Virus record (IMG/VR): IMGVR_UViG_3300035701_000001
Source: a virus
Strand: one strand, 5' to 3'
Length of the DNA stretch: 64,000 nucleotides
The notes beneath the pieces were generated by a model. It saw nothing but the letters and a program-made list of their open reading frames with translations, was not told the origin of the DNA and ran no database searches. The position numbers and the translations under genes are program-made. Below, one piece after another: positions 53,959-62,356 of this stretch (position 1 is the stretch's first letter; the number at the start of each line of letters is the position of its first letter).

Positions 53959-54035
53959 GGGGTTGTAGCTCAATGGTTTAGAGCAATCGGCCGTTAACCG
54001 ATAGGCTGTCCGTTCGAGTCGGACCTTCCCCGCCA
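53959..54035 (+). tRNA. tRNA-Asn(GTT), C33
   Basis: ATCGG-CCGTTAA-CCGAT; G73, CCA; two acceptor mismatches. Confidence 0.85.
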
Positions 54036-54040
54036 TCTTT

Positions 54041-54128
54041 GGGACGGTAGCTCAGTTGGGTAGAGCGCGGTTCTGATAAGACCGAGGCCGAGAGGATTTC
54101 GTGGGTTCGAGCCCCGCCCGTCCCACCA
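54041..54128 (+). tRNA. tRNA-Ile(GAT) with expanded (16-nt) variable region
   Basis: CGGTT-CTGATAA-GACCG; variable region AGGCCGAGAGGATTTC; CCA. Confidence 0.85.
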
Positions 54129-54129
54129 T

Positions 54130-54206
54130 TGTCCCCTAGTTCAATTGGCAGAACGCTCGGCTCTGGACCGAGAGGTTTCAAGGTTCGAACCCTTGGGGGA
54201 CAACCA
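54130..54206 (+). tRNA. tRNA-Gln(CTG)
   Basis: U1-A72; CTCGG-CTCTGGA-CCGAG; CCA. Confidence 0.92.
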
Positions 54207-54212
54207 TCTCGT

Positions 54213-54285
54213 GTCGGTGTAGCCCAAAGGCTGGGCACGACGCTGCAAACGTCGAAGAATGCCGGTTCGAATCCGGCCGCCGACT
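54213..54285 (+). tRNA. tRNA-Cys(GCA)
   Basis: CGACG-CTGCAAA-CGTCG; U73. Confidence 0.92.
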
Positions 54286-54292
54286 CCCTCTT

Positions 54293-54368
54293 CGGGGTGT
54301 AGCTCAGTTGGAGGAGCGCCTGGTTCGGGACCAGGAGGTTTTCGCCGGTTCGAGCCCGGCCACCCCGA
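54293..54368 (+). tRNA. tRNA-Pro(CGG)
   Basis: CCTGG-TTCGGGA-CCAGG; 8-nt variable loop. Confidence 0.9.
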
Positions 54369-54454
54369 CTCCTTCGTGTTACAACAAGGATACCGGCAGG
54401 CCGTGAGCCGGGACAACCGCACGGTACCTTCACCTCGATGTCAGGGAGAACGAC

Positions 54455-54883
54455 ATGAGACAGGTGCGTGCGAAGTTCCGGTGCATGGAGATCAGCCGTT
54501 TCTGGAACGGGGGGTGTACGCTCGTACGTTTTTTGCCTGTCATGGCAAAGAATGGATGCCGTGCGGACGAAGAGACCGCCAGCGAGGAGAACGCAGCCTT
54601 CTGGCAGGCAACCCCTTCCGGAGAAGCCAAGCTCCAGTTCCCCACGCTCGACCCCGTGTCCTACGAGATCGGGCACTGCTACTACCTCGACATGCGTCCA
54701 GACGAACAGGGGAGTTGGAAGCTCACCGAGCGCAAGCACAGTGAAGGCCAACTCGGGGTTGTCCTGTCCTGCTCCTGGCGGGACTCGGTCAGCATGAACA
54801 TCTGCAACGAGTCAGCCTGGGATGCCTTCGACGGTCCCATCGGGGGACCCTGGTCTGTCGAGTTCACGCACGCGGGGCCGTAG
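54455..54883 (+). CDS. conserved-looking phage hypothetical protein within the tRNA array
   Basis: VRAKFRC...PV...SEENAAFWQATPSG; GGGAG RBS. Confidence 0.8.
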   Translation: MRQVRAKFRCMEISRFWNGGCTLVRFLPVMAKNGCRADEETASEENAAFWQATPSGEAKLQFPTLDPVSYEIGHCYYLDMRPDEQGSWKLTERKHSEGQLGVVLSCSWRDSVSMNICNESAWDAFDGPIGGPWSVEFTHAGP

Positions 54884-54898
54884 CGCTCCTTCTTTTGC

Positions 54899-54969
54899 CG
54901 GGGCGTTGGCAAGCGGCAAGCCACCAGGCTTTGGTCCTGGCATCGCAGGTTCGAATCCTGTCGCCCCCA
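54899..54969 (+). tRNA. tRNA-Gln(TTG)
   Basis: CCAGG-CTTTGGT-CCTGG; C1/C72 mismatch. Confidence 0.85.
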
Positions 54970-54977
54970 CCTTCGAA

Positions 54978-55054
54978 GGCAGCGTACCTCAGTTGGCCAG
55001 AGGAGGGCGCTCATATCGCCACGGTCGCCGGTTCGAGTCCGGCCGCTGCCACCA
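54978..55054 (+). tRNA. tRNA-Met(CAT), elongator type (Ile2 not excluded)
   Basis: GGCG-CTCATAT-CGCC; G1-C72; CCA. Confidence 0.85.
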
Positions 55055-55063
55055 TCCTTTCAT

Positions 55064-55141
55064 CCGGCTGTAGCTCAGCCTGCTCAGAGCGCGTGGTCGG
55101 GGACCACGAGGTCGCCCGTTGAAGTCGGGCCAGCCGGACCA
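55064..55141 (+). tRNA. tRNA-Pro(GGG), C33
   Basis: CGTGG-TCGGGGA-CCACG; CCA. Confidence 0.88.
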
Positions 55142-55145
55142 TTTT

Positions 55146-55220
55146 GCGGGTATGGCGCAATGGTAGCGCATCGGGTTGCCAATCCGAAGGTTGCCGGTTC
55201 GACTCCGGTTGCCCGCTCCA
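55146..55220 (+). tRNA. tRNA-Gly(GCC)
   Basis: TCGGG-TTGCCAA-TCCGA; U73, CCA. Confidence 0.93.
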
Positions 55221-55339
55221 CTTTGAAATAATCTACAAAAAACGAAAGAAACGAAAATAATGACACAGAACTTGTATAGTCCGAGGCTTGGACTATACAG
55301 TTCCTGTGCAATTTCAAGAAAGATGCAGGTTCCTTCGTT

Positions 55340-55412
55340 GCTGACATAGCTCAGCCGGTAGAGCAGTGGTTTTGTAAACCTCAGGTCGTCGGTTCGAACC
55401 CGACTGTCAGCT
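55340..55412 (+). tRNA. tRNA-Thr(TGT)
   Basis: GGT-TTTGTAA-ACC. Confidence 0.9.
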
Positions 55413-55422
55413 TTCCTTCCTC

Positions 55423-55500
55423 GCCCCAGTAGCTCAGGTGGATCAGAGCGCGTCCTTGGTAAGGACGAGGTCATCGGTTCAAGTCCGATTTGGGGCTCCA
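55423..55500 (+). tRNA. tRNA-Thr(GGT)
   Basis: CGTCC-TTGGTAA-GGACG; CCA. Confidence 0.93.
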
Positions 55501-55506
55501 TTTTGT

Positions 55507-55584
55507 GCCTCAGTAGCTCAGATTGCTTGGAGCGCCTGCTTCGTACGCAGGAGGTCGTCGGTTGGAATCCGACCTGAGGCTCCA
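55507..55584 (+). tRNA. tRNA-Thr(CGT)
   Basis: CCTGC-TTCGTAC-GCAGG; CCA. Confidence 0.92.
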
Positions 55585-55727
55585 TTTCTCAGGACGCATC
55601 GAACGAGGCTAGGGCCCGTGTCTCCCTTCGGAATCGGTGGGAGGAGCTTCGGCTTCGTTTGCACCACCCCAACGCGGTGGATAATCGGGGTGGGAAGCGT
55701 GCGGATGACCTGTCCTGGGATCTATTT

Positions 55728-55799
55728 GCGGGAGTAGCTCAATGGTAGAGCGCCAGCCTTCCAAGCTGGCCGTTGCGGGTTCGAGTCCCGTTTCCCGCT
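55728..55799 (+). tRNA. tRNA-Gly(TCC)
   Basis: CCAGC-CTTCCAA-GCTGG; U73. Confidence 0.93.
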
Positions 55800-55807
55800 C
55801 TTTTTCC

Positions 55808-55882
55808 GGGTGTGTAGCTCAATGGTGGAGCACCGTTTCGACATGGCGGAGGCCGTTGGTTCGAGTCCAATCACACCCACCA
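55808..55882 (+). tRNA. tRNA-Val(GAC), C33
   Basis: CCGTT-TCGACAT-GGCGG; A73, CCA. Confidence 0.88.
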
Positions 55883-55888
55883 TTTCTT

Positions 55889-55927
55889 GGGGACGTAGCT
55901 CAGTTGGGAGAGCGGCGTTGCACGCGT
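55889..55927 (+). pseudogene. 5' remnant of a tRNA-Ala(TGC)-like gene
   Basis: GGGGACG-TA-GCTC-AGTTGGGA-GAGC, then TTGCAC in a shortened arm; no T-arm or acceptor 3' strand follows. Confidence 0.65.
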
Positions 55928-55952
55928 AGTCCAGGTATGGTAGCACTAGGCT

Positions 55953-56444
55953 ATGTCGAAGTACCGCTTTGTGAAAGCTCCTCCTGACTACCCCGGCAAG
56001 GTGTACTCCTGGGGGTATCGGGTTCTTGAACATCACCTTGTTTGGTGGCAGAACACCAAGCGCCTCGTTGCAGAAGGTTTTGAGCTTCACCACAAGAACG
56101 AAAATGGGTTGGACAATCGCTTTGAGAACTTGGAGGAAATCAGGGCGCCGGATCATGGCAAGCTGCATCACCCAAAGGAACCGGATGTGGAGACAACCTG
56201 CGCTTACTGCGAAAAGCCTCTCACTAGAAGTGGCCGGGATGTCAAGTCCAAGAGAAAAGCTGGTCAGCAGCGATTCTTCTGCTCATCTTCTCATGCAGCC
56301 CTCATACGACAACGTGAGAAGAAAGGATCGAAGGCCGGTCACGGTACAAGCTCGATGTATAACATTCATGGCTGTCGATGTGAAGTCTGCAAAGTCTACA
56401 ATCAAGCCAAGTATCTCAGGTACAAGGCTAAAAAGGGGCGTTAG
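55953..56444 (+). CDS. HNH (HNH_3-type) homing-like endonuclease with Zn-ribbon domains
   Basis: VLEHHLVW...ELHHKNENGLDNRFENLE...H..LHH; CAYC..FCS; HGT..Y..HGCRCEVC; stop lies inside the next tRNA. Confidence 0.88.
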   Translation: MSKYRFVKAPPDYPGKVYSWGYRVLEHHLVWWQNTKRLVAEGFELHHKNENGLDNRFENLEEIRAPDHGKLHHPKEPDVETTCAYCEKPLTRSGRDVKSKRKAGQQRFFCSSSHAALIRQREKKGSKAGHGTSSMYNIHGCRCEVCKVYNQAKYLRYKAKKGR

Positions 56445-56510
56445 TTCAGTTGCGAGAACACTCGGCTTGCACCCGAGAGGTCGCGGGTTGGAACCCCGCA
56501 CGCTCCACCA
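56435..56510 (+). tRNA. tRNA-Ala(TGC)
   Basis: G3-U70; CTCGG-CTTGCAC-CCGAG; CCA. Confidence 0.9.
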
Positions 56511-56516
56511 TTTCTG

Positions 56517-56590
56517 TGCGGGGAGAGGTGTTGGTTTCCCAACCAGGACTCATACTCCAGGCCACGTCGGTTCGATTCCGGCCCCCGCTA
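56517..56590 (+). tRNA. tRNA-Met(CAT), initiator-like
   Basis: 1-72 mismatch, acceptor (T)GCGGGG/CCCCGC(T); GGA-CTCATAC-TCC (lacks the full 3GC pairs). Confidence 0.75.
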
Positions 56591-56599
56591 CCCTTGTTC

Positions 56600-56672
56600 G
56601 CGAGCATCGTCTAGCGGCCAGGACTCCGCCTTTACACGGCGGCTATCGGGGGTTCGAGTCCCTCTGCTCGCA
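56600..56672 (+). tRNA. tRNA-Val(TAC) with a Glu-like body
   Basis: CCGCC-TTTACAC-GGCGG; D-arm TCGTCTAGCGGCCAGGAC; A73. Confidence 0.88.
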
Positions 56673-56682
56673 CTTCTCCCAT

Positions 56683-56755
56683 GCCCCCGTCGTCTAACGG
56701 TCAGGACTCCGGGTTTTCAGCCCGGCTACTGCAGGTTCGAATCCTGTCGGGGGTA
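56683..56755 (+). tRNA. tRNA-Glu(TTC)
   Basis: CCGGG-TTTTCAG-CCCGG. Confidence 0.92.
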
Positions 56756-56761
56756 CTCCTT

Positions 56762-56836
56762 GCTCGCGTAGCTCAATGGAGGAGCACCGGAGTTCTACCT
56801 CGGTCGATGGAGGTTCGAATCCTCTCGCGAGCGCCA
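56762..56836 (+). tRNA. tRNA-Arg(TCT)
   Basis: CCGGA-GTTCTAC-CTCGG (31-39 mismatch); CCA. Confidence 0.8.
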
Positions 56837-56841
56837 ATCAC

Positions 56842-56916
56842 GGCCCCGTAGCTCAGTGGAATCAGAGCCTCCCGTTCCTACCGGGAAGGTCACCGGTTCG
56901 AGTCCGGTCGGGGCTG
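56842..56916 (+). tRNA. tRNA-Arg(CCT)
   Basis: TCCCG-TTCCTAC-CGGGA. Confidence 0.92.
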
Positions 56917-56976
56917 CTTTTCCTCGTCGTGCAAGACCGTCGTATCCAGGGTATTCCTCTGCTGCAGGAAACTGTC

Positions 56977-57558
56977 ATGCACGCCGTCCTTCTTCTCAAC
57001 GTCGACCATACCCCCATGAAGATCGTCCCCTGGCAGAAGGCCATGTGTCTTCTGCTCGCGGACAAGGTCCGGCTCATCGAGAGCTACGGGGACAAGGTCG
57101 TGCATTCCGCCTCGGGCAAGACCTGGCCCTGGCCTGCGGTCGTGGCCCTGAAGACCTATGAGCGGATCAAGAGGGCCGAGTCGAAGGTCAAGTTCAAGCG
57201 CCTCAACGTGCTGGCCCGAGACGGGTTTGCCTGCGCGTACTGCGGGGTCAAGCCCCAGACGTCCGCCGGGCTTCCTGACCTGTCTCGCCTCTCGGTCGAC
57301 CACGTCGTTCCGAAGTCCCGTGCGGTCGATGGCAAGGTGAAGCTGCCCTGGAACGGCCGGGTGGTCCCCATGACGTGCTGGGACAACGTCGTGTCCTCCT
57401 GCAACGCCTGCAACTACGCGAAGGCGGACCGGACCCCTGCCGAGGCGGGGATGAAGCTCCAGGTCGTCCCGAGACGACCCAATCCCTTCGACGTCGTCCG
57501 CATCGTGCTGTCTCGGATGGCCGTGCCTGCCGAGTGGGAACCACATTTGTCTTCTTGA
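56977..57558 (+). CDS. HNH endonuclease (McrA-like, LLLN...W.KA N-terminus)
   Basis: VLLLNVDHTP..IVPWQKAMCLL; NVLARDGFACAYCG; SVDHVVPKSR; WDNVVSSC..CNY.KADRTP.EAGM.L. Confidence 0.92.
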   Translation: MHAVLLLNVDHTPMKIVPWQKAMCLLLADKVRLIESYGDKVVHSASGKTWPWPAVVALKTYERIKRAESKVKFKRLNVLARDGFACAYCGVKPQTSAGLPDLSRLSVDHVVPKSRAVDGKVKLPWNGRVVPMTCWDNVVSSCNACNYAKADRTPAEAGMKLQVVPRRPNPFDVVRIVLSRMAVPAEWEPHLSS

Positions 57559-57621: not shown

Positions 57622-58953
57622 ATGAAAAAGTCCAAGGTCTCCAAGACCCCCAAGATCATCATTTCCCATCCGGGTTTCCTCACGCGGGCCGTGCGGTTCG
57701 CGGTGAGCTTCCCTGGGATGCGGAAGGCCGATCTCAATGGGGAGAAGGGGCTGTTCTACCAGCTTACCGTCACACAGAGCGATGTGCGTCGAGCCGCCAA
57801 CCGCCTGATTCACCTCATCGCCTTGCTCGACCGTGGGATGATCGAACGGCCGATGAGGGAAGATGGAACAGGCCCCGAGTACGCCCAGACCCTTGGCTAT
57901 CGGGCCCTCAACGGAACCTGGCAGCCCTTCGACAAGCCTCTTTACGATCCGGAAGCCAAGCGGCTCGGCGGTGGATGCCTCTCTGCGCTGTCCGAGTTTG
58001 TCCGCAACCGGTATGCCAACGACAAGAAGGCAGTCCGGAAGGATCGGAATCGTCCGGAGTACAGCACGTTCAAGATCCTCCCCATCCCCATCCGGGCCCA
58101 GGAGACCCACATCCAAGAGGACGAGAAGGAGGGAATCACGATTTCCCTTGGCCTGTGGAGCAGGGATGCGGGGGGAGCCACTCGCCTGAAGGTCAAGCCG
58201 GTCAAACCCAACGCAGGGCAGAAGACCATCCTCCAGCGTCTCCTCGATGGAACCTACTCGTGTGGCGGTGCACAACTCACCCATCATCCCCGCAAGGCGA
58301 AGTGGATGCTGTCCGTCGTCTATACAGGCCTGGTCCAGCAAACACGGGGGGATTGGATTGCCGGGGTACGGCTCGATGCCTCTCCCTACGTCGAGATCGC
58401 CTACACCCCGAAGACTCCTGTTCCCGAAAATACTCCGAACCACGAAGCTCCTCGTCCGGATACGCTGCGTGTCTCGGAAGTCGCCCTGAGGGCGTGGTGC
58501 CAGGTGGAGGAACAGAAGAGGGAACGGCTGCACTTCAACCGGGACGTCTACGGGGCTCGGGAAGGACAAGGCCGGAACGGAAAGCTCAAGCCTGTCTCCG
58601 CAATCCAGGACAAGCATGCGAGGACGGTGAAGACAGCCCTGCAGCAGACCGCGTGTGCCGTCGTGGAGACGGCGAAGAAACGGGGTGCTTCGGTGCTCGC
58701 CCTTGGAGATGTGCAGGGTCTCGCCAGGAAATTCCTCCGCCAGACGGACGAGATGAGCCGCCGCAAGCGTGCCCACCTCCGCCGGATCCGGTTCTTGCAC
58801 CAGCAGCCGTCCGAACTGTACGGCTACATCCAGATGGCCGCAGAGCGGGAAGGCTTGGCCTTCCTCAAGGTCGGTCCTGCCGACTCCGCCCTCCATGCGG
58901 CCTTGCAAGGACGGGAAGCCATTCTGCAAGGAGAAATCCCATCCGTTTCTTGA
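57622..58953 (+). CDS. nuclease-dead Cas12f1-like (type V-F) CRISPR effector, 443 aa
   Basis: Aligns by eye to AsCas12f1 blocks (KTILQRLLDGTYSCGGAQLTHHPRKAKWMLSVVY; GAREGQGRNGKLKPVSAIQDK). RuvC-I GVRLD (D to R), RuvC-II ALGDV (E to G); Zn finger and RuvC-III absent. Array adjacent. Confidence 0.85.
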   Translation: MKKSKVSKTPKIIISHPGFLTRAVRFAVSFPGMRKADLNGEKGLFYQLTVTQSDVRRAANRLIHLIALLDRGMIERPMREDGTGPEYAQTLGYRALNGTWQPFDKPLYDPEAKRLGGGCLSALSEFVRNRYANDKKAVRKDRNRPEYSTFKILPIPIRAQETHIQEDEKEGITISLGLWSRDAGGATRLKVKPVKPNAGQKTILQRLLDGTYSCGGAQLTHHPRKAKWMLSVVYTGLVQQTRGDWIAGVRLDASPYVEIAYTPKTPVPENTPNHEAPRPDTLRVSEVALRAWCQVEEQKRERLHFNRDVYGAREGQGRNGKLKPVSAIQDKHARTVKTALQQTACAVVETAKKRGASVLALGDVQGLARKFLRQTDEMSRRKRAHLRRIRFLHQQPSELYGYIQMAAEREGLAFLKVGPADSALHAALQGREAILQGEIPSVS

Positions 58954-58984
58954 CTTTGAACGCTCTTTGACATTTCTGAGCATC

Positions 58985-59170
58985 CCCCTGTTGGTTCCCG
59001 CAGCGGCAGGGGTGTGGTGTTGGGCTGACTACGCAGCCAGAAGGGGAGTCCCTTTCTAGGGAAGCCACCCGAGCCCATGGGAAGCTCGGGGCGCGAAGTG
59101 GTCTACAGGGTTGCAAGCCTCGGTTCCCGGTGTCGAAACCGGTCCCCCCGAGGCCCCCCGCAAGGGGCAG
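58985..59170 (+). ncRNA. putative tracrRNA (anti-repeat at 59103-59127; ends approximate)
   Basis: CTACAG plus CAAGCCTCGGTTCC pair with repeat nt 31-36 and 12-25 (20 bp, two G-U); flanking GC-rich hairpins. Confidence 0.75.
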
Positions 59171-59397
59171 GACCCGCTTGATCAACGCTCCTCAATCCTC
59201 TCCTTTTGCGAGTGGTCCGGCTTCGGCTGGATTCCCAGATGCCGCTCGCACGCTCGAAAGTGCAAATAAGGAAGGAACCTACTATTGAAAGATAGAAGAG
59301 TGGATCTCTGCGGGAACCTCTGTGGCTGCGTGGAAAAGGTGGATAACTCGCCATCCGAGTCGGAGAAGGGCTTGGTTTGCGGATCGTGAACGGGTCT

Positions 59398-61461
59398 GTT
59401 GCAGTGGAGGAACTGAGGTTTGATCTGCTGTAGCGCTCCTGGACACATCGACTTGCTGGCCGAGTTTCCAGGTTGCAGTGGAGGAACTGAGGTTTGATCT
59501 GCTGTAGCGCTCCTGGACACATCGACTTGCTGGCCGAGTTTCCAGGTTGCAGTGGAGGAACTGAGGTTTGATCTGCTGTAGCAAAAGACCGAACGTCCGG
59601 TCGAGACCAGCAATCCAAGTTGCAGTGGAAGGACTGAGGTTTGATCTGCTGTAGCATGATACAGCGCACGACCTATGCGCCCTTCGCGTCGTTGCAGTGG
59701 AAGGACTGAGGTTTGATCTGCTGTAGCATGCCCTGTCTGTCGGGAACGGATCCGTTGTACAGGCGTTGCAGTGGAAGGACTGAGGTTTGATCTGCTGTAG
59801 CCTACCAGCGGTCCGCCGGGATCACGGCGTCGGATCTGGTTGCAGTGGAGGAACTGAGGTTTGATCTGCTGTAGCCGCCCAAGTTCCGCTATCTCTCTCA
59901 GCACGTTCCGGGTTGCAGTGGAGGAACTGAGGTTGGATCTGCTGTAGCGCAGAGCTACTCCGTGAGTCCACGTCTCGCCCACTTGTTACAGTAGAGGAAC
60001 TGAGGTTTGATCTGCTGTAGCCGGCTCGTCGCCCTCCGCGACCACCTTCTGCACCATGGGTTGCAGTGGAGGAACTGAGGTTTGATCTGCTATAGCCAGG
60101 CCCGCAGTGTCTCCGGGCGGTGGCTAGAAGGCGGTTGCAGTGGAGGAACTGAGATTTGATCTGCTGTAGCAGCACCGGCCACCTGAGAACAGGTCACACT
60201 TCTCGGAGGTTGCAGTAGAGGAACTGAGGTTTGATCTGTTGTAGTTAGAGCGAGCGCGACAGGATGAGCGCGGACCTTTGAGTCGCAATGGAGGAAATGA
60301 AGTTTGATCTGCTGTGGCCCGCAATCTCGCTCGCTGTCCGAGCAATTTCCGGTGGTTTCAGTGGAGGAACTTAGGTTTGATTTGCTGTAGTTCCACGCGC
60401 GGACGCTACGCTGGGGCTGGCAGGTGAAATCGCAGTGAAGAAACTGAGGTTTGATCTGCTGTAATGACCCGGATACGCCCGCGTCCAATGCCAGTTCTGT
60501 GGTCGCAGTGGAAAAACTGAGGTTTGATCTGCTGTAATGACTTCCGGACGACCTTCTCTTCTGCAGATGATCAGTTGCAATGGAGGAACTTGGGTTTTAT
60601 CCGCTGTAGCAGGTACTCCGCTGCTTCATAGGTTTGATTCGCTGTAGCTTGGCGAGCGGAGGCTTCTTGTCAGGAAGATGAAGGAATCGCAATGGAGAAA
60701 CTTAGGTTTGTTCTACTGTAGTCTCGACCGTCTACCTTATGAGAGACCCTGTCATCGGTTGTAGTAGATGAATTGAGGTTTGATCCTCTGTAGCACTCGA
60801 ACTGACCATGGAAAAGTTGAGGTTTGATCTGCTGTAGCGAGGGTCCTCGATCCAAATCCAAAGGTCCTACCTTGTCACAATGGAAAAATTGAGGTTTGAT
60901 CCTCTGTAGCGGTGGAGCGACGTTGAGAGTTGGTTCCGCGAGCGCTTCGCAATAGAGAAATTGAGGTTTGATCCGTTGTAGCCGCAAGCCCGGTGACCAT
61001 CTGCCTGGTAAAATCGTGATTGCAGTAGAAAAGTTGAGGTTTGTTCCGCTGTAGTGCGGCTGCGGTCAACGGCAGGGGTTCCGTGGACATCGTTGCAGTG
61101 GAAAAGTCGAGGTTCGTTCCATTGTAGCAAGAGAAGCTCGAAGAATGGAAGGAGCATCCCGGTGGTTGCAGTGGAAAAGTCGAGGTTTGATCTGCTGTAG
61201 CAAGCCGTTCACCGGGGAACAGTCCTGGTATGGGGTCGGATATCTGAACCTCGTGATGTCCCATCGAATTGCAGGGGAAGAATTGAGGTTGGATCCACTG
61301 TAACATTGCCTGCCACGTTTCACAGGTAGAGGTCGATTGTCGTTGAGATGGAGGAAGGAAAGTCAGATCTGCTGTAGTGCGGCCCCCGTGCTGCCCCATG
61401 AAGTTCCTTGTGCCTGCCAAAGAGGTCAAGGGGGAAAAACATAGGTTGGATCCGCTGTAAT
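59398..61461 (+). CRISPR. CRISPR array: 29 repeats (2 truncated), 28 spacers; consensus GTTGCAGTGGAGGAACTGAGGTTTGATCTGCTGTAGC (37 nt)
   Basis: Regular spacers of mostly 35-38 nt; degeneration increases rightwards, so the leader is on the left; terminal 7-bp pairing needs G-U pairs, favouring + strand transcription. Confidence 0.97.
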
Positions 61462-61537: not shown

Positions 61538-62356
61538 ATGGCTCATGTGACCTGGGTGGTTGAGACAGGCATTGAGCCTGCCTATGAAAAGGTTCTCCTG
61601 AAGTCTATTCAGAAAACCGGTTCGAAAGCCTTCGTTCGCAAGGTGCTACCGTTCGGGGAGGGGATGCTCGATCCTCCGGATCTTTCGGGGCATGTCGTGT
61701 TCCATGGAAGCCTCCAGGGGGCCCAGTGGGTCCGGGAACATACCGACTGGAAGCCCGGTGCCATCGAAAACACCTCGCAGTTGGAGTGTCGCTACTACTA
61801 CCCCCGGCTTGGACCCAGGCTTCTCAATCGGGAACACACTTTCCTCCCCTTCGGCTGCCTGGAGGAACGCAAGGACGACCTGTTCCGGTGGCTGGGGGAG
61901 GCGGACTGCATCTTCCTTCGCCCGGACTCCAACCGGAAGCCGTTCTCGGGGCAGATCATCCGGAAAGAGCAGTGGAATGAGGATATTGGCCTTGCTTCCT
62001 TTTACGGCGTAGATCCCGAGGTGATGGTGGTCGTGGCCCGACCTCAGGTGGTTCGGGCCGAATGGCGGTTCTTCGTGTGCCGGGGGCAGGTAGTCACGGG
62101 CTCCTGCTACCGTCGGGGGGACCAGCGGGTTCGGAAGCGTGCCGACGAGAAGAGGATGGACGTGGCGAGGAACATGCTCGCGTTTGCCCTGAGCCAGGGG
62201 TATGACCCCGACCCCGTGTGGGTACTGGACATCTGCGAGGACGGAGCAGGGGAGTACCGCATCTTGGAGGTGGGCGGTTTCTCCAGTGCCGGGCTCTATG
62301 CCTGCAACACCCACCTCCTGGTGCAGGCGGTCGAGGTCGCAGTCACGCAGCCTTGA
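61538..62356 (+). CDS. ATP-grasp domain protein, R2K clade (DUF4343-like)
   Basis: VFHGSL, IFLRP.S..K.FSGQ, EWRFFV..GQVVTGS.Y, VLDICE..ILEVG.FSSAGLY. Confidence 0.8.
   Translation: MAHVTWVVETGIEPAYEKVLLKSIQKTGSKAFVRKVLPFGEGMLDPPDLSGHVVFHGSLQGAQWVREHTDWKPGAIENTSQLECRYYYPRLGPRLLNREHTFLPFGCLEERKDDLFRWLGEADCIFLRPDSNRKPFSGQIIRKEQWNEDIGLASFYGVDPEVMVVVARPQVVRAEWRFFVCRGQVVTGSCYRRGDQRVRKRADEKRMDVARNMLAFALSQGYDPDPVWVLDICEDGAGEYRILEVGGFSSAGLYACNTHLLVQAVEVAVTQP

Follow-up and report, generated by a model that had tools for sequence, protein, structure and literature searches.

A putative tracrRNA-type scaffold between a predicted nuclease-dead Cas12f-like gene and a CRISPR array on a phage-like contig

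The effector gene, the array and their surroundings

The window, that is, the whole stretch of 64,000 nucleotides analysed here, is part of a 204.5-kb contig with a jumbo-phage-like look. Among its phage-like genes are those for a DnaE-type polymerase (with a match to a phage family), ThyX, GP88 and HNH proteins, and from its sequence the window looks like part of a jumbo phage. A gene for a Cas12f-like effector (P0001), a non-coding interval and a CRISPR array follow one another on the + strand (Table 1). The interval between gene and array, 58954-59397, has no ORF picked by a gene call based on G+C content by codon position, and its pattern of change fits an RNA.

Table 1 Features of the effector-array locus, with positions in the window.
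Feature	Position	Strand	Description
Effector gene P0001	57622-58953	+	443 aa; Cas12f-like, predicted nuclease-dead
Motif TCTTTGACA	58964-58972	+	11 nt 3' of the effector stop codon; conserved
Variable stem-loop CCCCTG/CAGGGG	58985-59012	+	hairpin of unrelated sequence in every locus
Conserved hairpin GGCUG-ACUACG-CAGCC	59023-59038	+	loop tetrad CUAC at 59029-59032
AAGGGGAG	59041-59048	+	5' strand of the helix closing the variable domain; two bases after the hairpin
Unalignable variable domain	about 59049-59184	+	67-182 nt among loci
Anti-repeat of the sequence-only reading	59103-59127	+	CTACAG (59103-59108), GGTTG, 14-nt arm (59114-59127)
ACGCTCCTC	59185-59193	+	3' strand of the closing helix
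Conserved stem GCGAGUGG ... CCGCUCGC	59208-59249	+	encloses an inner hairpin
Array leader	59255-59397	+	A+T-richer; intact repeats adjoin
CRISPR array	59398-61461	+	27 full 37-nt repeats placed by script and at least one partial copy

Directly 5' of the effector gene, at 54000-56920 (+), at least 18 tRNA genes are packed closely together, with HNH-endonuclease-like ORFs between them; the true start of the ORF at 56776-57558 is probably later than called, because it overlaps two of the tRNA calls. An ATP-grasp protein gene of the R2K clade (61538-62356, +) lies directly 3' of the array. A second RuvC-type gene (P0162; 62967-63998, -), 1.5 kb past the end of the array that faces away from the effector gene, encodes at least 343 aa and continues past the end of the window. 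It has GVDCN and LVLEEL motifs, with the Asp and Glu present, reads NRHTAAA at the expected RuvC-III position, is without a Zn ribbon and matches weakly the PADLOC Cas12f/Cas14b models (1e-5) and the family profile of P0001 (hhalign 93.6%). No match to cas1, cas2 or cas4 was found among the scanned genes near the locus, no sigma factor lies beside the effector gene within the window, and neither the P0001 protein nor the array was found in GenBank phages. A gene identical to that of the effector is also present on JGI contig Ga0315295_10085946.

P0001 matches the PADLOC Cas12f profile at 2.3e-18, over profile positions 27-313 of 399 only, and its best solved relatives are the AsCas12f chains 8dzj and 7wju (3e-13 over residues 72-367), so that similarity to the WED, REC and RuvC regions of Cas12f is present. 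The protein has no Pfam match; PF07282, found in relatives, is absent. An exhaustive profile search returned 503 relatives, 63 of them below 1e-30. At the RuvC-I Asp position of the family alignment, P0001 (GVRLD) and P0004 have R, one subclade has H and most of the other members have D; at the RuvC-II Glu position P0001 has G (LALGDV). The CxxC...CxxC Zn ribbon (TNB domain) and the hADrNAA RuvC-III motif, present in nearly all full-length relatives, are both missing. An earlier, sequence-only reading of this DNA had set the locus beside type V-F effectors. P0001 does not have the residues of a working V-F nuclease: it is predicted to be Cas12f-like and nuclease-dead, with all three RuvC residues gone. 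The distance from the stop codon to the first RNA motif is the same as in a relative (L001), from which the C-terminal loss is taken to be an internal deletion rather than a premature stop. With the RuvC residues and Zn ribbon gone, any sgRNA would guide a DNA binder and not a nuclease.

Relatives with His for the RuvC-I Asp are P0005, P0006, P0011, P0013, P0016, P0023, P0026, P0027, P0031, P0034 and P0038. Most of them retain the RuvC-II Glu and the RuvC-III motif (P0013 is without the Glu, P0034 is truncated), and to judge by these residues they may represent a distinct state, possibly of altered activity, between the active and the fully dead members.

The array has a repeat of 37 nt (GTTGCAGTGGAGGAACTGAGGTTTGATCTGCTGTAGC), a period of 72-75 nt and spacers of 35-38 nt. 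The last full repeat starts at 61342, a partial copy lies at about 61443-61461, and three over-long gaps contain unplaced repeat remnants; the array is taken to have 27-29 repeats. The repeats decay away from the effector, towards 61461, which places the leader at the 59397 end and makes + the strand on which the array is read. The first two spacers (59435-59471 and 59509-59545) are identical, and the 74-nt unit is exactly duplicated, suggesting recent recombination or slippage rather than two acquisitions. No spacer target was found in the window, in the fetched loci or in GenBank phages.

Conserved structure 3' of the effector gene

DNA of homologues was fetched through an exact-protein look-up and one metagenome scan. 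A related non-coding region was found directly 3' of the effector gene in nine further distinct loci (L001, L003, L005, L006, L029/L030, L031, L151/L152, L153 and L154-L157), the effectors of which are only about 27-41% identical to P0001. Scans with protein patterns gave none in viral contigs and two loci in metagenome contigs, while scans of genome and viral contig collections with scaffold-motif patterns returned chance matches only, without an effector gene. Rfam has no family in the interval, the only matches being the upstream tRNAs.

The elements of the region occur in the order TCTTTGACA, variable stem, 5-bp hairpin, AAGGGGAG, variable domain, ACGCTCCTC and a GCGAGYGG/CCGCUCGC stem that ends at about 59250. 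TCTTTGACA is found at the same place, within two substitutions, in seven loci (the window, L001, L005, L029, L031, L151 and L153); it is absent from L003 and L154, and L006 has no match. From its sequence and place it may be a -35-like box or the 5' part of the RNA. It was also considered as a recurring phage promoter, and rejected: it occurs only twice in the window, which is the chance expectation, and no -10 box follows. The variable stem cannot be aligned by MAFFT, yet each locus has a hairpin there.

The 5-bp hairpin, with its 6-nt loop, is paired in 40 of 40 cells across 8 loci. Two of its pairs are changed on both sides (C-G to U-A; G-C to A-U and C-G), and its covariation score was reached by no shuffle. 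The closing helix, formed by AAGGGGAG with ACGCUCCUC and pairing GGGGAG with CUCCUC, has 6 bp in 8 of 9 loci across a spacing of 67-182 nt; all of its C/U variation stands opposite G, and L154 has one compensatory change, G-C to A-U. The 3' stem, GCGAGYGG ... CCGCTCGC at 59208/59242, is common to the loci; from an alignment of 4 of them RNAalifold predicts 8 conserved pairs, in which all changes are one-sided (wobble), and in L151 the stem reads by eye as GCGAGCGU/ACGCUCGC. Secondary structure with covariation among homologous loci, which is what would be sought in a tracrRNA, is found here. Folding of the + strand gave -126.9 kcal/mol (z -1.4, a modest value) versus -112.1 kcal/mol (z +1.0) for the - strand, a difference of 15 kcal/mol. 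No sigma-70 promoter or intrinsic terminator was predicted in 58800-59500, so the scaffold and array could be one transcript.

These findings bear on the extent of the RNA. The sequence-only reading had placed a tracrRNA at 58985-59170 and proposed this interval as the scaffold for an sgRNA. The four hairpins that it listed are all there (58985-58990/59007-59012, 59023-59027/59034-59038, 59068-59074/59084-59090 and 59156-59167). Its bounds were too narrow, since they leave out the conserved ACGCTCCTC and the 3' stem, and an sgRNA cut at 59170 would be without these conserved 3' parts.

Some relatives depart from the arrangement of the window. In L006, CGCAG-UUC-CUGCG replaces the conserved hairpin, and three tandem 23-nt units (CTGCAGTATCAGG.CATCCA.GT) lie 3' of the scaffold of P0011 (L006:5709-5780) in place of a CRISPR array. 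L154-L157 are the same phage from several samples and encode an effector of 481 aa (P0160) and a scaffold with the loop UCUCCA, again without a CRISPR array (L154:4947-5700); effector and scaffold are followed by a 67-aa ORF and by a 268-aa protein with faint matches to sigma-70 region 4 and HTH domains, and two short CTTGAT...GGAG.GC units there may be single guides. A 15-nt stretch of L005 (L005:2723-2737), within a called gene some 1.3 kb upstream of the effector gene, differs by one substitution from the core of the repeat of that locus; judged by sequence, it may be a self-match or a stray copy of the repeat.

Two sites of complementarity to the repeat

Six loci (the window, L001, L003, L005, L151 and L153) have arrays downstream on the same strand, with dissimilar repeats. 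In all six, the four central bases of the hairpin loop are exactly complementary to positions -5 to -2 of the repeat, which directly precede the spacer. The loop tetrad is CUAC in the window, opposite GUAG at repeat nt 33-36; CUGC in L001, opposite GCAG; CCAC in L005, opposite GUGG, where the repeat end rests on an assumed repeat length of 37 nt; and CCGC in L003, L151 and L153, opposite GCGG. Only 6 of the 720 permutations of loops and repeats match in all six loci, and each locus has its required tetramer at a frequency of only 0.0035-0.02 per position. Four independent states of the tetrad at one fixed offset, each a rare tetramer, are far beyond chance. This covariation is the strongest evidence obtained here; the sequence-only reading had listed the hairpin and had not noticed the loop contact. 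The loop CUCC of L154 and the downstream ...GUGGGAGC are consistent with the same pairing and were left out of the count. The contact is short, at 4-5 bp, and corresponds in position to R:AR-2 of Cas12f sgRNAs.

The second site is the one on which the sequence-only reading was built. There, 59114-59127 (CAAGCCTCGGTTCC) pairs with repeat nt 12-25 (GGAACTGAGGTTTG) in 14 contiguous pairs, 2 of them G-U, and 59103-59108 is perfectly complementary to repeat nt 31-36 (CTGTAG), the two arms flanking a 5x5 internal loop. This pairing was recovered both by direct reading and by script. The claim that the two deviations make G-U pairs on the + strand only is also borne out: G59117 and G59122 each stand opposite a repeat U, and on the opposite strand both would be C-A mismatches. 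When the 444-nt interval 58954-59397 was shuffled 3000 times with its dinucleotides preserved, a helix of at least 14 bp with at most 2 G-U pairs arose in a single shuffle. The gapped pairing score is 40, versus 25.9 +/- 3.6 for shuffled repeats, and was reached by 1 of 100 shuffles. On both strands of the 64-kb window (128 kb of strand space) there are three 14-bp G-U-tolerant helices outside the array; the helix at 59114-59127 has the fewest G-U pairs among them and alone is flanked by a perfect 6-mer. Ranked by duplex energy alone, the site comes only about 11th among roughly 1400 independent windows. Energy discriminates poorly in G+C-rich DNA, and for this reason duplex-energy scans of the window and of related intervals were replaced by tests of contiguous helices against shuffles.

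Single repeats of the array carry as many as 11 substitutions, yet 26 of the 27 copies can still form 11-14 of the 14 pairs. The variants that recur in the interior (A14G, A15G, C16T, T17C and A19G) all keep pairing, and the changes that break pairs are mostly at the helix end or occur once. The pattern is suggestive only, since all five recurrent variants are transitions.

The long anti-repeat is not shared by the family. Its place is within the domain that AAGGGGAG and ACGCUCCUC close by pairing, where the scaffold varies most, and conservation of its position among relatives was not found: no long anti-repeat is significant in L001, L003, L005 or L153, where the best helices are no better than those of shuffles. 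The partial exception is L151, with a perfect 12-bp helix in the same domain against repeat nt 16-27; this is marginal (62 of 1000 shuffles reach it, p about 0.06), and the helix lies on the other side of a conserved CCGAGC hairpin, so that it is not positionally homologous. Part of the core of the anti-repeat, GCAAGCC.TCGG, was also seen by eye in L003, where the repeat is unrelated, and the segment may accordingly be partly structural. Covariation across homologous loci was found for the hairpin, the closing helix and the loop-repeat contact; the long anti-repeat is significant in the window only. A candidate origin of the repeat as a duplicate of the 3' part of the scaffold was rejected, same-strand local alignments being no better than those of shuffles.

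When the RNA is folded to minimum energy, GCCUCGG/CCGAGGC and neighbouring helices take up the anti-repeat. Co-folding, which had been suggested as a check, gave a divided answer: with repeat nt 12-37 alone it returned exactly the proposed duplex (ddG -5.3 kcal/mol), with the full-length repeat there was no net gain, and with a spacer attached other pairings were predicted instead. The 14-nt arm and the loop contact can coexist, as repeat nt 12-25 and nt 33-36 are both free for their own partners. The CTACAG arm, proposed as part of the duplex, fares worse. It uses the same repeat GUAG that the family-conserved loop contact at 59029-59032 takes, and is therefore probably an alternative or a relic rather than the native pairing. 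By analogy with Cas12f, the 14-nt arm is a probable lineage-specific R:AR-1.

A proposed dual guide and its relation to known systems

We consider it probable that the stretch from about 58964/58985 to about 59250 (+) is the tracrRNA-type scaffold of a phage-borne, nuclease-dead Cas12f-like effector, with two-site docking of the crRNA. The original proposal of a tracrRNA between effector and array is retained in the form of a conserved, same-strand scaffold with compensatory changes and loop covariation; what is given up is the long anti-repeat as a feature of the family. If transcribed, the scaffold would have ends near these coordinates and would consist of the variable 5' stem, the 5-bp hairpin, the long-range AAGGGGAG:ACGCUCCUC helix around a multi-hairpin domain, and the 3' stem. 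The crRNAs would be cut from a + strand transcript of the array, the 3' part of the repeat being kept ahead of the spacer. At the first dock, repeat GUAG (nt 33-36), just before the guide, would pair with the loop CUAC in a pseudoknot-like contact equivalent to R:AR-2. At the second, which would be particular to the phage of the window, repeat nt 12-25 would pair with 59114-59127, the equivalent of the distal, partly dispensable R:AR-1; the long duplex might also offer a double-stranded substrate to a host RNase III-type enzyme that processes the array. The effector, taken to be a non-cutting Cas12f derivative of the dimer type, would receive a dual guide made up of the scaffold (about 58985-59250) and a crRNA, and the assembled RNP would bind complementary DNA without cutting it. 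More tentatively, the locus could serve as a form of CRISPR interference by a jumbo phage, in which more than 25 guides, a two-point dock and RNase III-type processing, in place of array processing by the dead effector itself, would let an effector that has lost its catalytic residues silence genes of the host or of rival phages without cutting; this wider role is possible, and we hold it with less than even confidence.

The explanation that competes most directly concerns the long anti-repeat alone. The RNA could be real and contact the repeat through the hairpin loop only, the 14 + 6 bp of anti-repeat being a non-functional, lineage-specific relic outside the RNP, left for example when a copy of the repeat recombined, in inverted orientation, into the variable domain. 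The absence or lack of significance of the long anti-repeat in the five other array loci, its place in the most variable part of the scaffold, its burial in the minimum-energy fold and the duplication of the loop motif CUAC by the CTACAG arm would all suit a relic. A relic is nevertheless unlikely, as both deviations from perfect complementarity are G-U pairs on the strand that would be expressed, the recurrent interior variants of the repeat keep the pairing, and the geometry, with the arm ending at nt 25 and the loop contact at nt 33-36, fits both L151 and the R:AR-1/R:AR-2 arrangement of Cas12f. Outright chance complementarity in G+C-rich non-coding DNA, with no RNA function at all, would agree with the middling energy rank, the existence of three such helices in the window and the weak folding z-score, but it would have to account for a helix so rarely reached by shuffled sequence, for loops and repeats that covary, and for a scaffold that keeps its compensatory changes across such divergent effectors; we give it almost no weight.

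A further possibility is that the scaffold is not a separate trans-acting RNA and is instead a structured 5' leader of the array transcript, or a processed 3' UTR of the effector gene, acting in cis on the first repeats or only after cleavage. Gene, scaffold and array share a strand with no promoter or terminator predicted between them, and the scaffold starts 11 nt past the stop codon, like omega-RNAs at the 3' ends of tnpB genes. One leader could not serve all 27-29 repeats in cis, however, and L154-L157, L006 and L004 keep the effector, with or without a scaffold, in the absence of a CRISPR array. This arrangement seems improbable to us, and in practice it would differ from the tracrRNA-type scaffold that we prefer in biogenesis only.

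Type V-F tracrRNAs are already known. What is new here is the architecture of the scaffold in this clade, the rule of loop-repeat covariation, the internal position of the long anti-repeat, and an effector in which the Zn ribbon and all three catalytic positions are lost. At 443 aa, P0001 would be among the smallest natural DNA binders guided by RNA, and the locus offers a concrete RNA architecture for it that is open to test. In this architecture the closing helix, the 3' stem and the hairpin together with its loop tetrad are conserved, and the long anti-repeat is lineage-specific. The rule, loop NCYRCN against a repeat 3' end GYRGN, predicts repeat ends and array orientation in a mostly phage-borne, uncharacterised family, and connects the RNA of this family with the contact that Cas12f and TnpB RNAs make next to the guide. 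For L029 and L031 it predicts repeats that end in GCAG followed by one base. It also bears on why phages retain long CRISPR arrays beside effectors unable to cut.

Naturally non-cleaving type V effectors guided by CRISPR arrays include Cas12k (V-K) and Cas12m (V-M). Cas12k needs a long tracrRNA and works with Tn7-like transposition genes, while Cas12m acts without a tracrRNA. Unlike the effector of the window, both belong to different Cas12 clades and size classes, and no sequence similarity to them was found here.

The closest parallel for the RNA is the tracrRNA:crRNA of type V-F1 Cas12f1, especially that of AsCas12f1 (7WJU, 8DZJ, 8J12), the sgRNA of which has stems 1-4 together with R:AR-1 and R:AR-2, the distal R:AR-1 being truncatable (10.1101/2023.07.03.547593). 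In both systems a long structured RNA adjoins an effector of about 420-450 aa and, as proposed here for the window, the handle is 5' of the guide and the repeat is contacted at two separate places, by a long distal duplex and by a short one next to the guide. The anti-repeat of the window differs in being internal, within a domain closed over a long range and followed by conserved 3' structure, and not at the 3' end of the tracrRNA; the effector of the window is, in addition, without the RuvC catalytic residues and Zn ribbon, and its locus is on a phage-like contig.

For the locus as a whole, the nearest description is that of a CRISPR-array-associated dCas12f cluster with a C-terminally truncated RuvC site and a covarying intergenic RNA upstream of the array (PMC13472631, Extended Data Fig. 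1). The published example, from a Chitinophagaceae MAG, has an efflux-promoter target and a proposed role as a repressor, and was not characterised (Hoffmann et al., Nature 2026, PMC13472631). Matched by description, the window agrees with it in the dead RuvC, the array and the upstream structured RNA; unlike this bacterial example, it lies on a 204-kb phage-like contig and has 27-29 repeats and no identified targets. The dCas12f-sigmaE systems use one chimeric single guide without a tracrRNA (Hoffmann et al. 2026, PMC13472631). Like their guides, and like the omega-RNAs of TnpB and the guides of TldR, the scaffold starts at the 3' end of the effector gene and the guide-adjacent bases would be held by an upstream element; like dCas12f-sigmaE and TldR, the effector is predicted to be a nuclease-dead DNA binder. 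The window departs from both in that a full CRISPR array would supply separate crRNAs.
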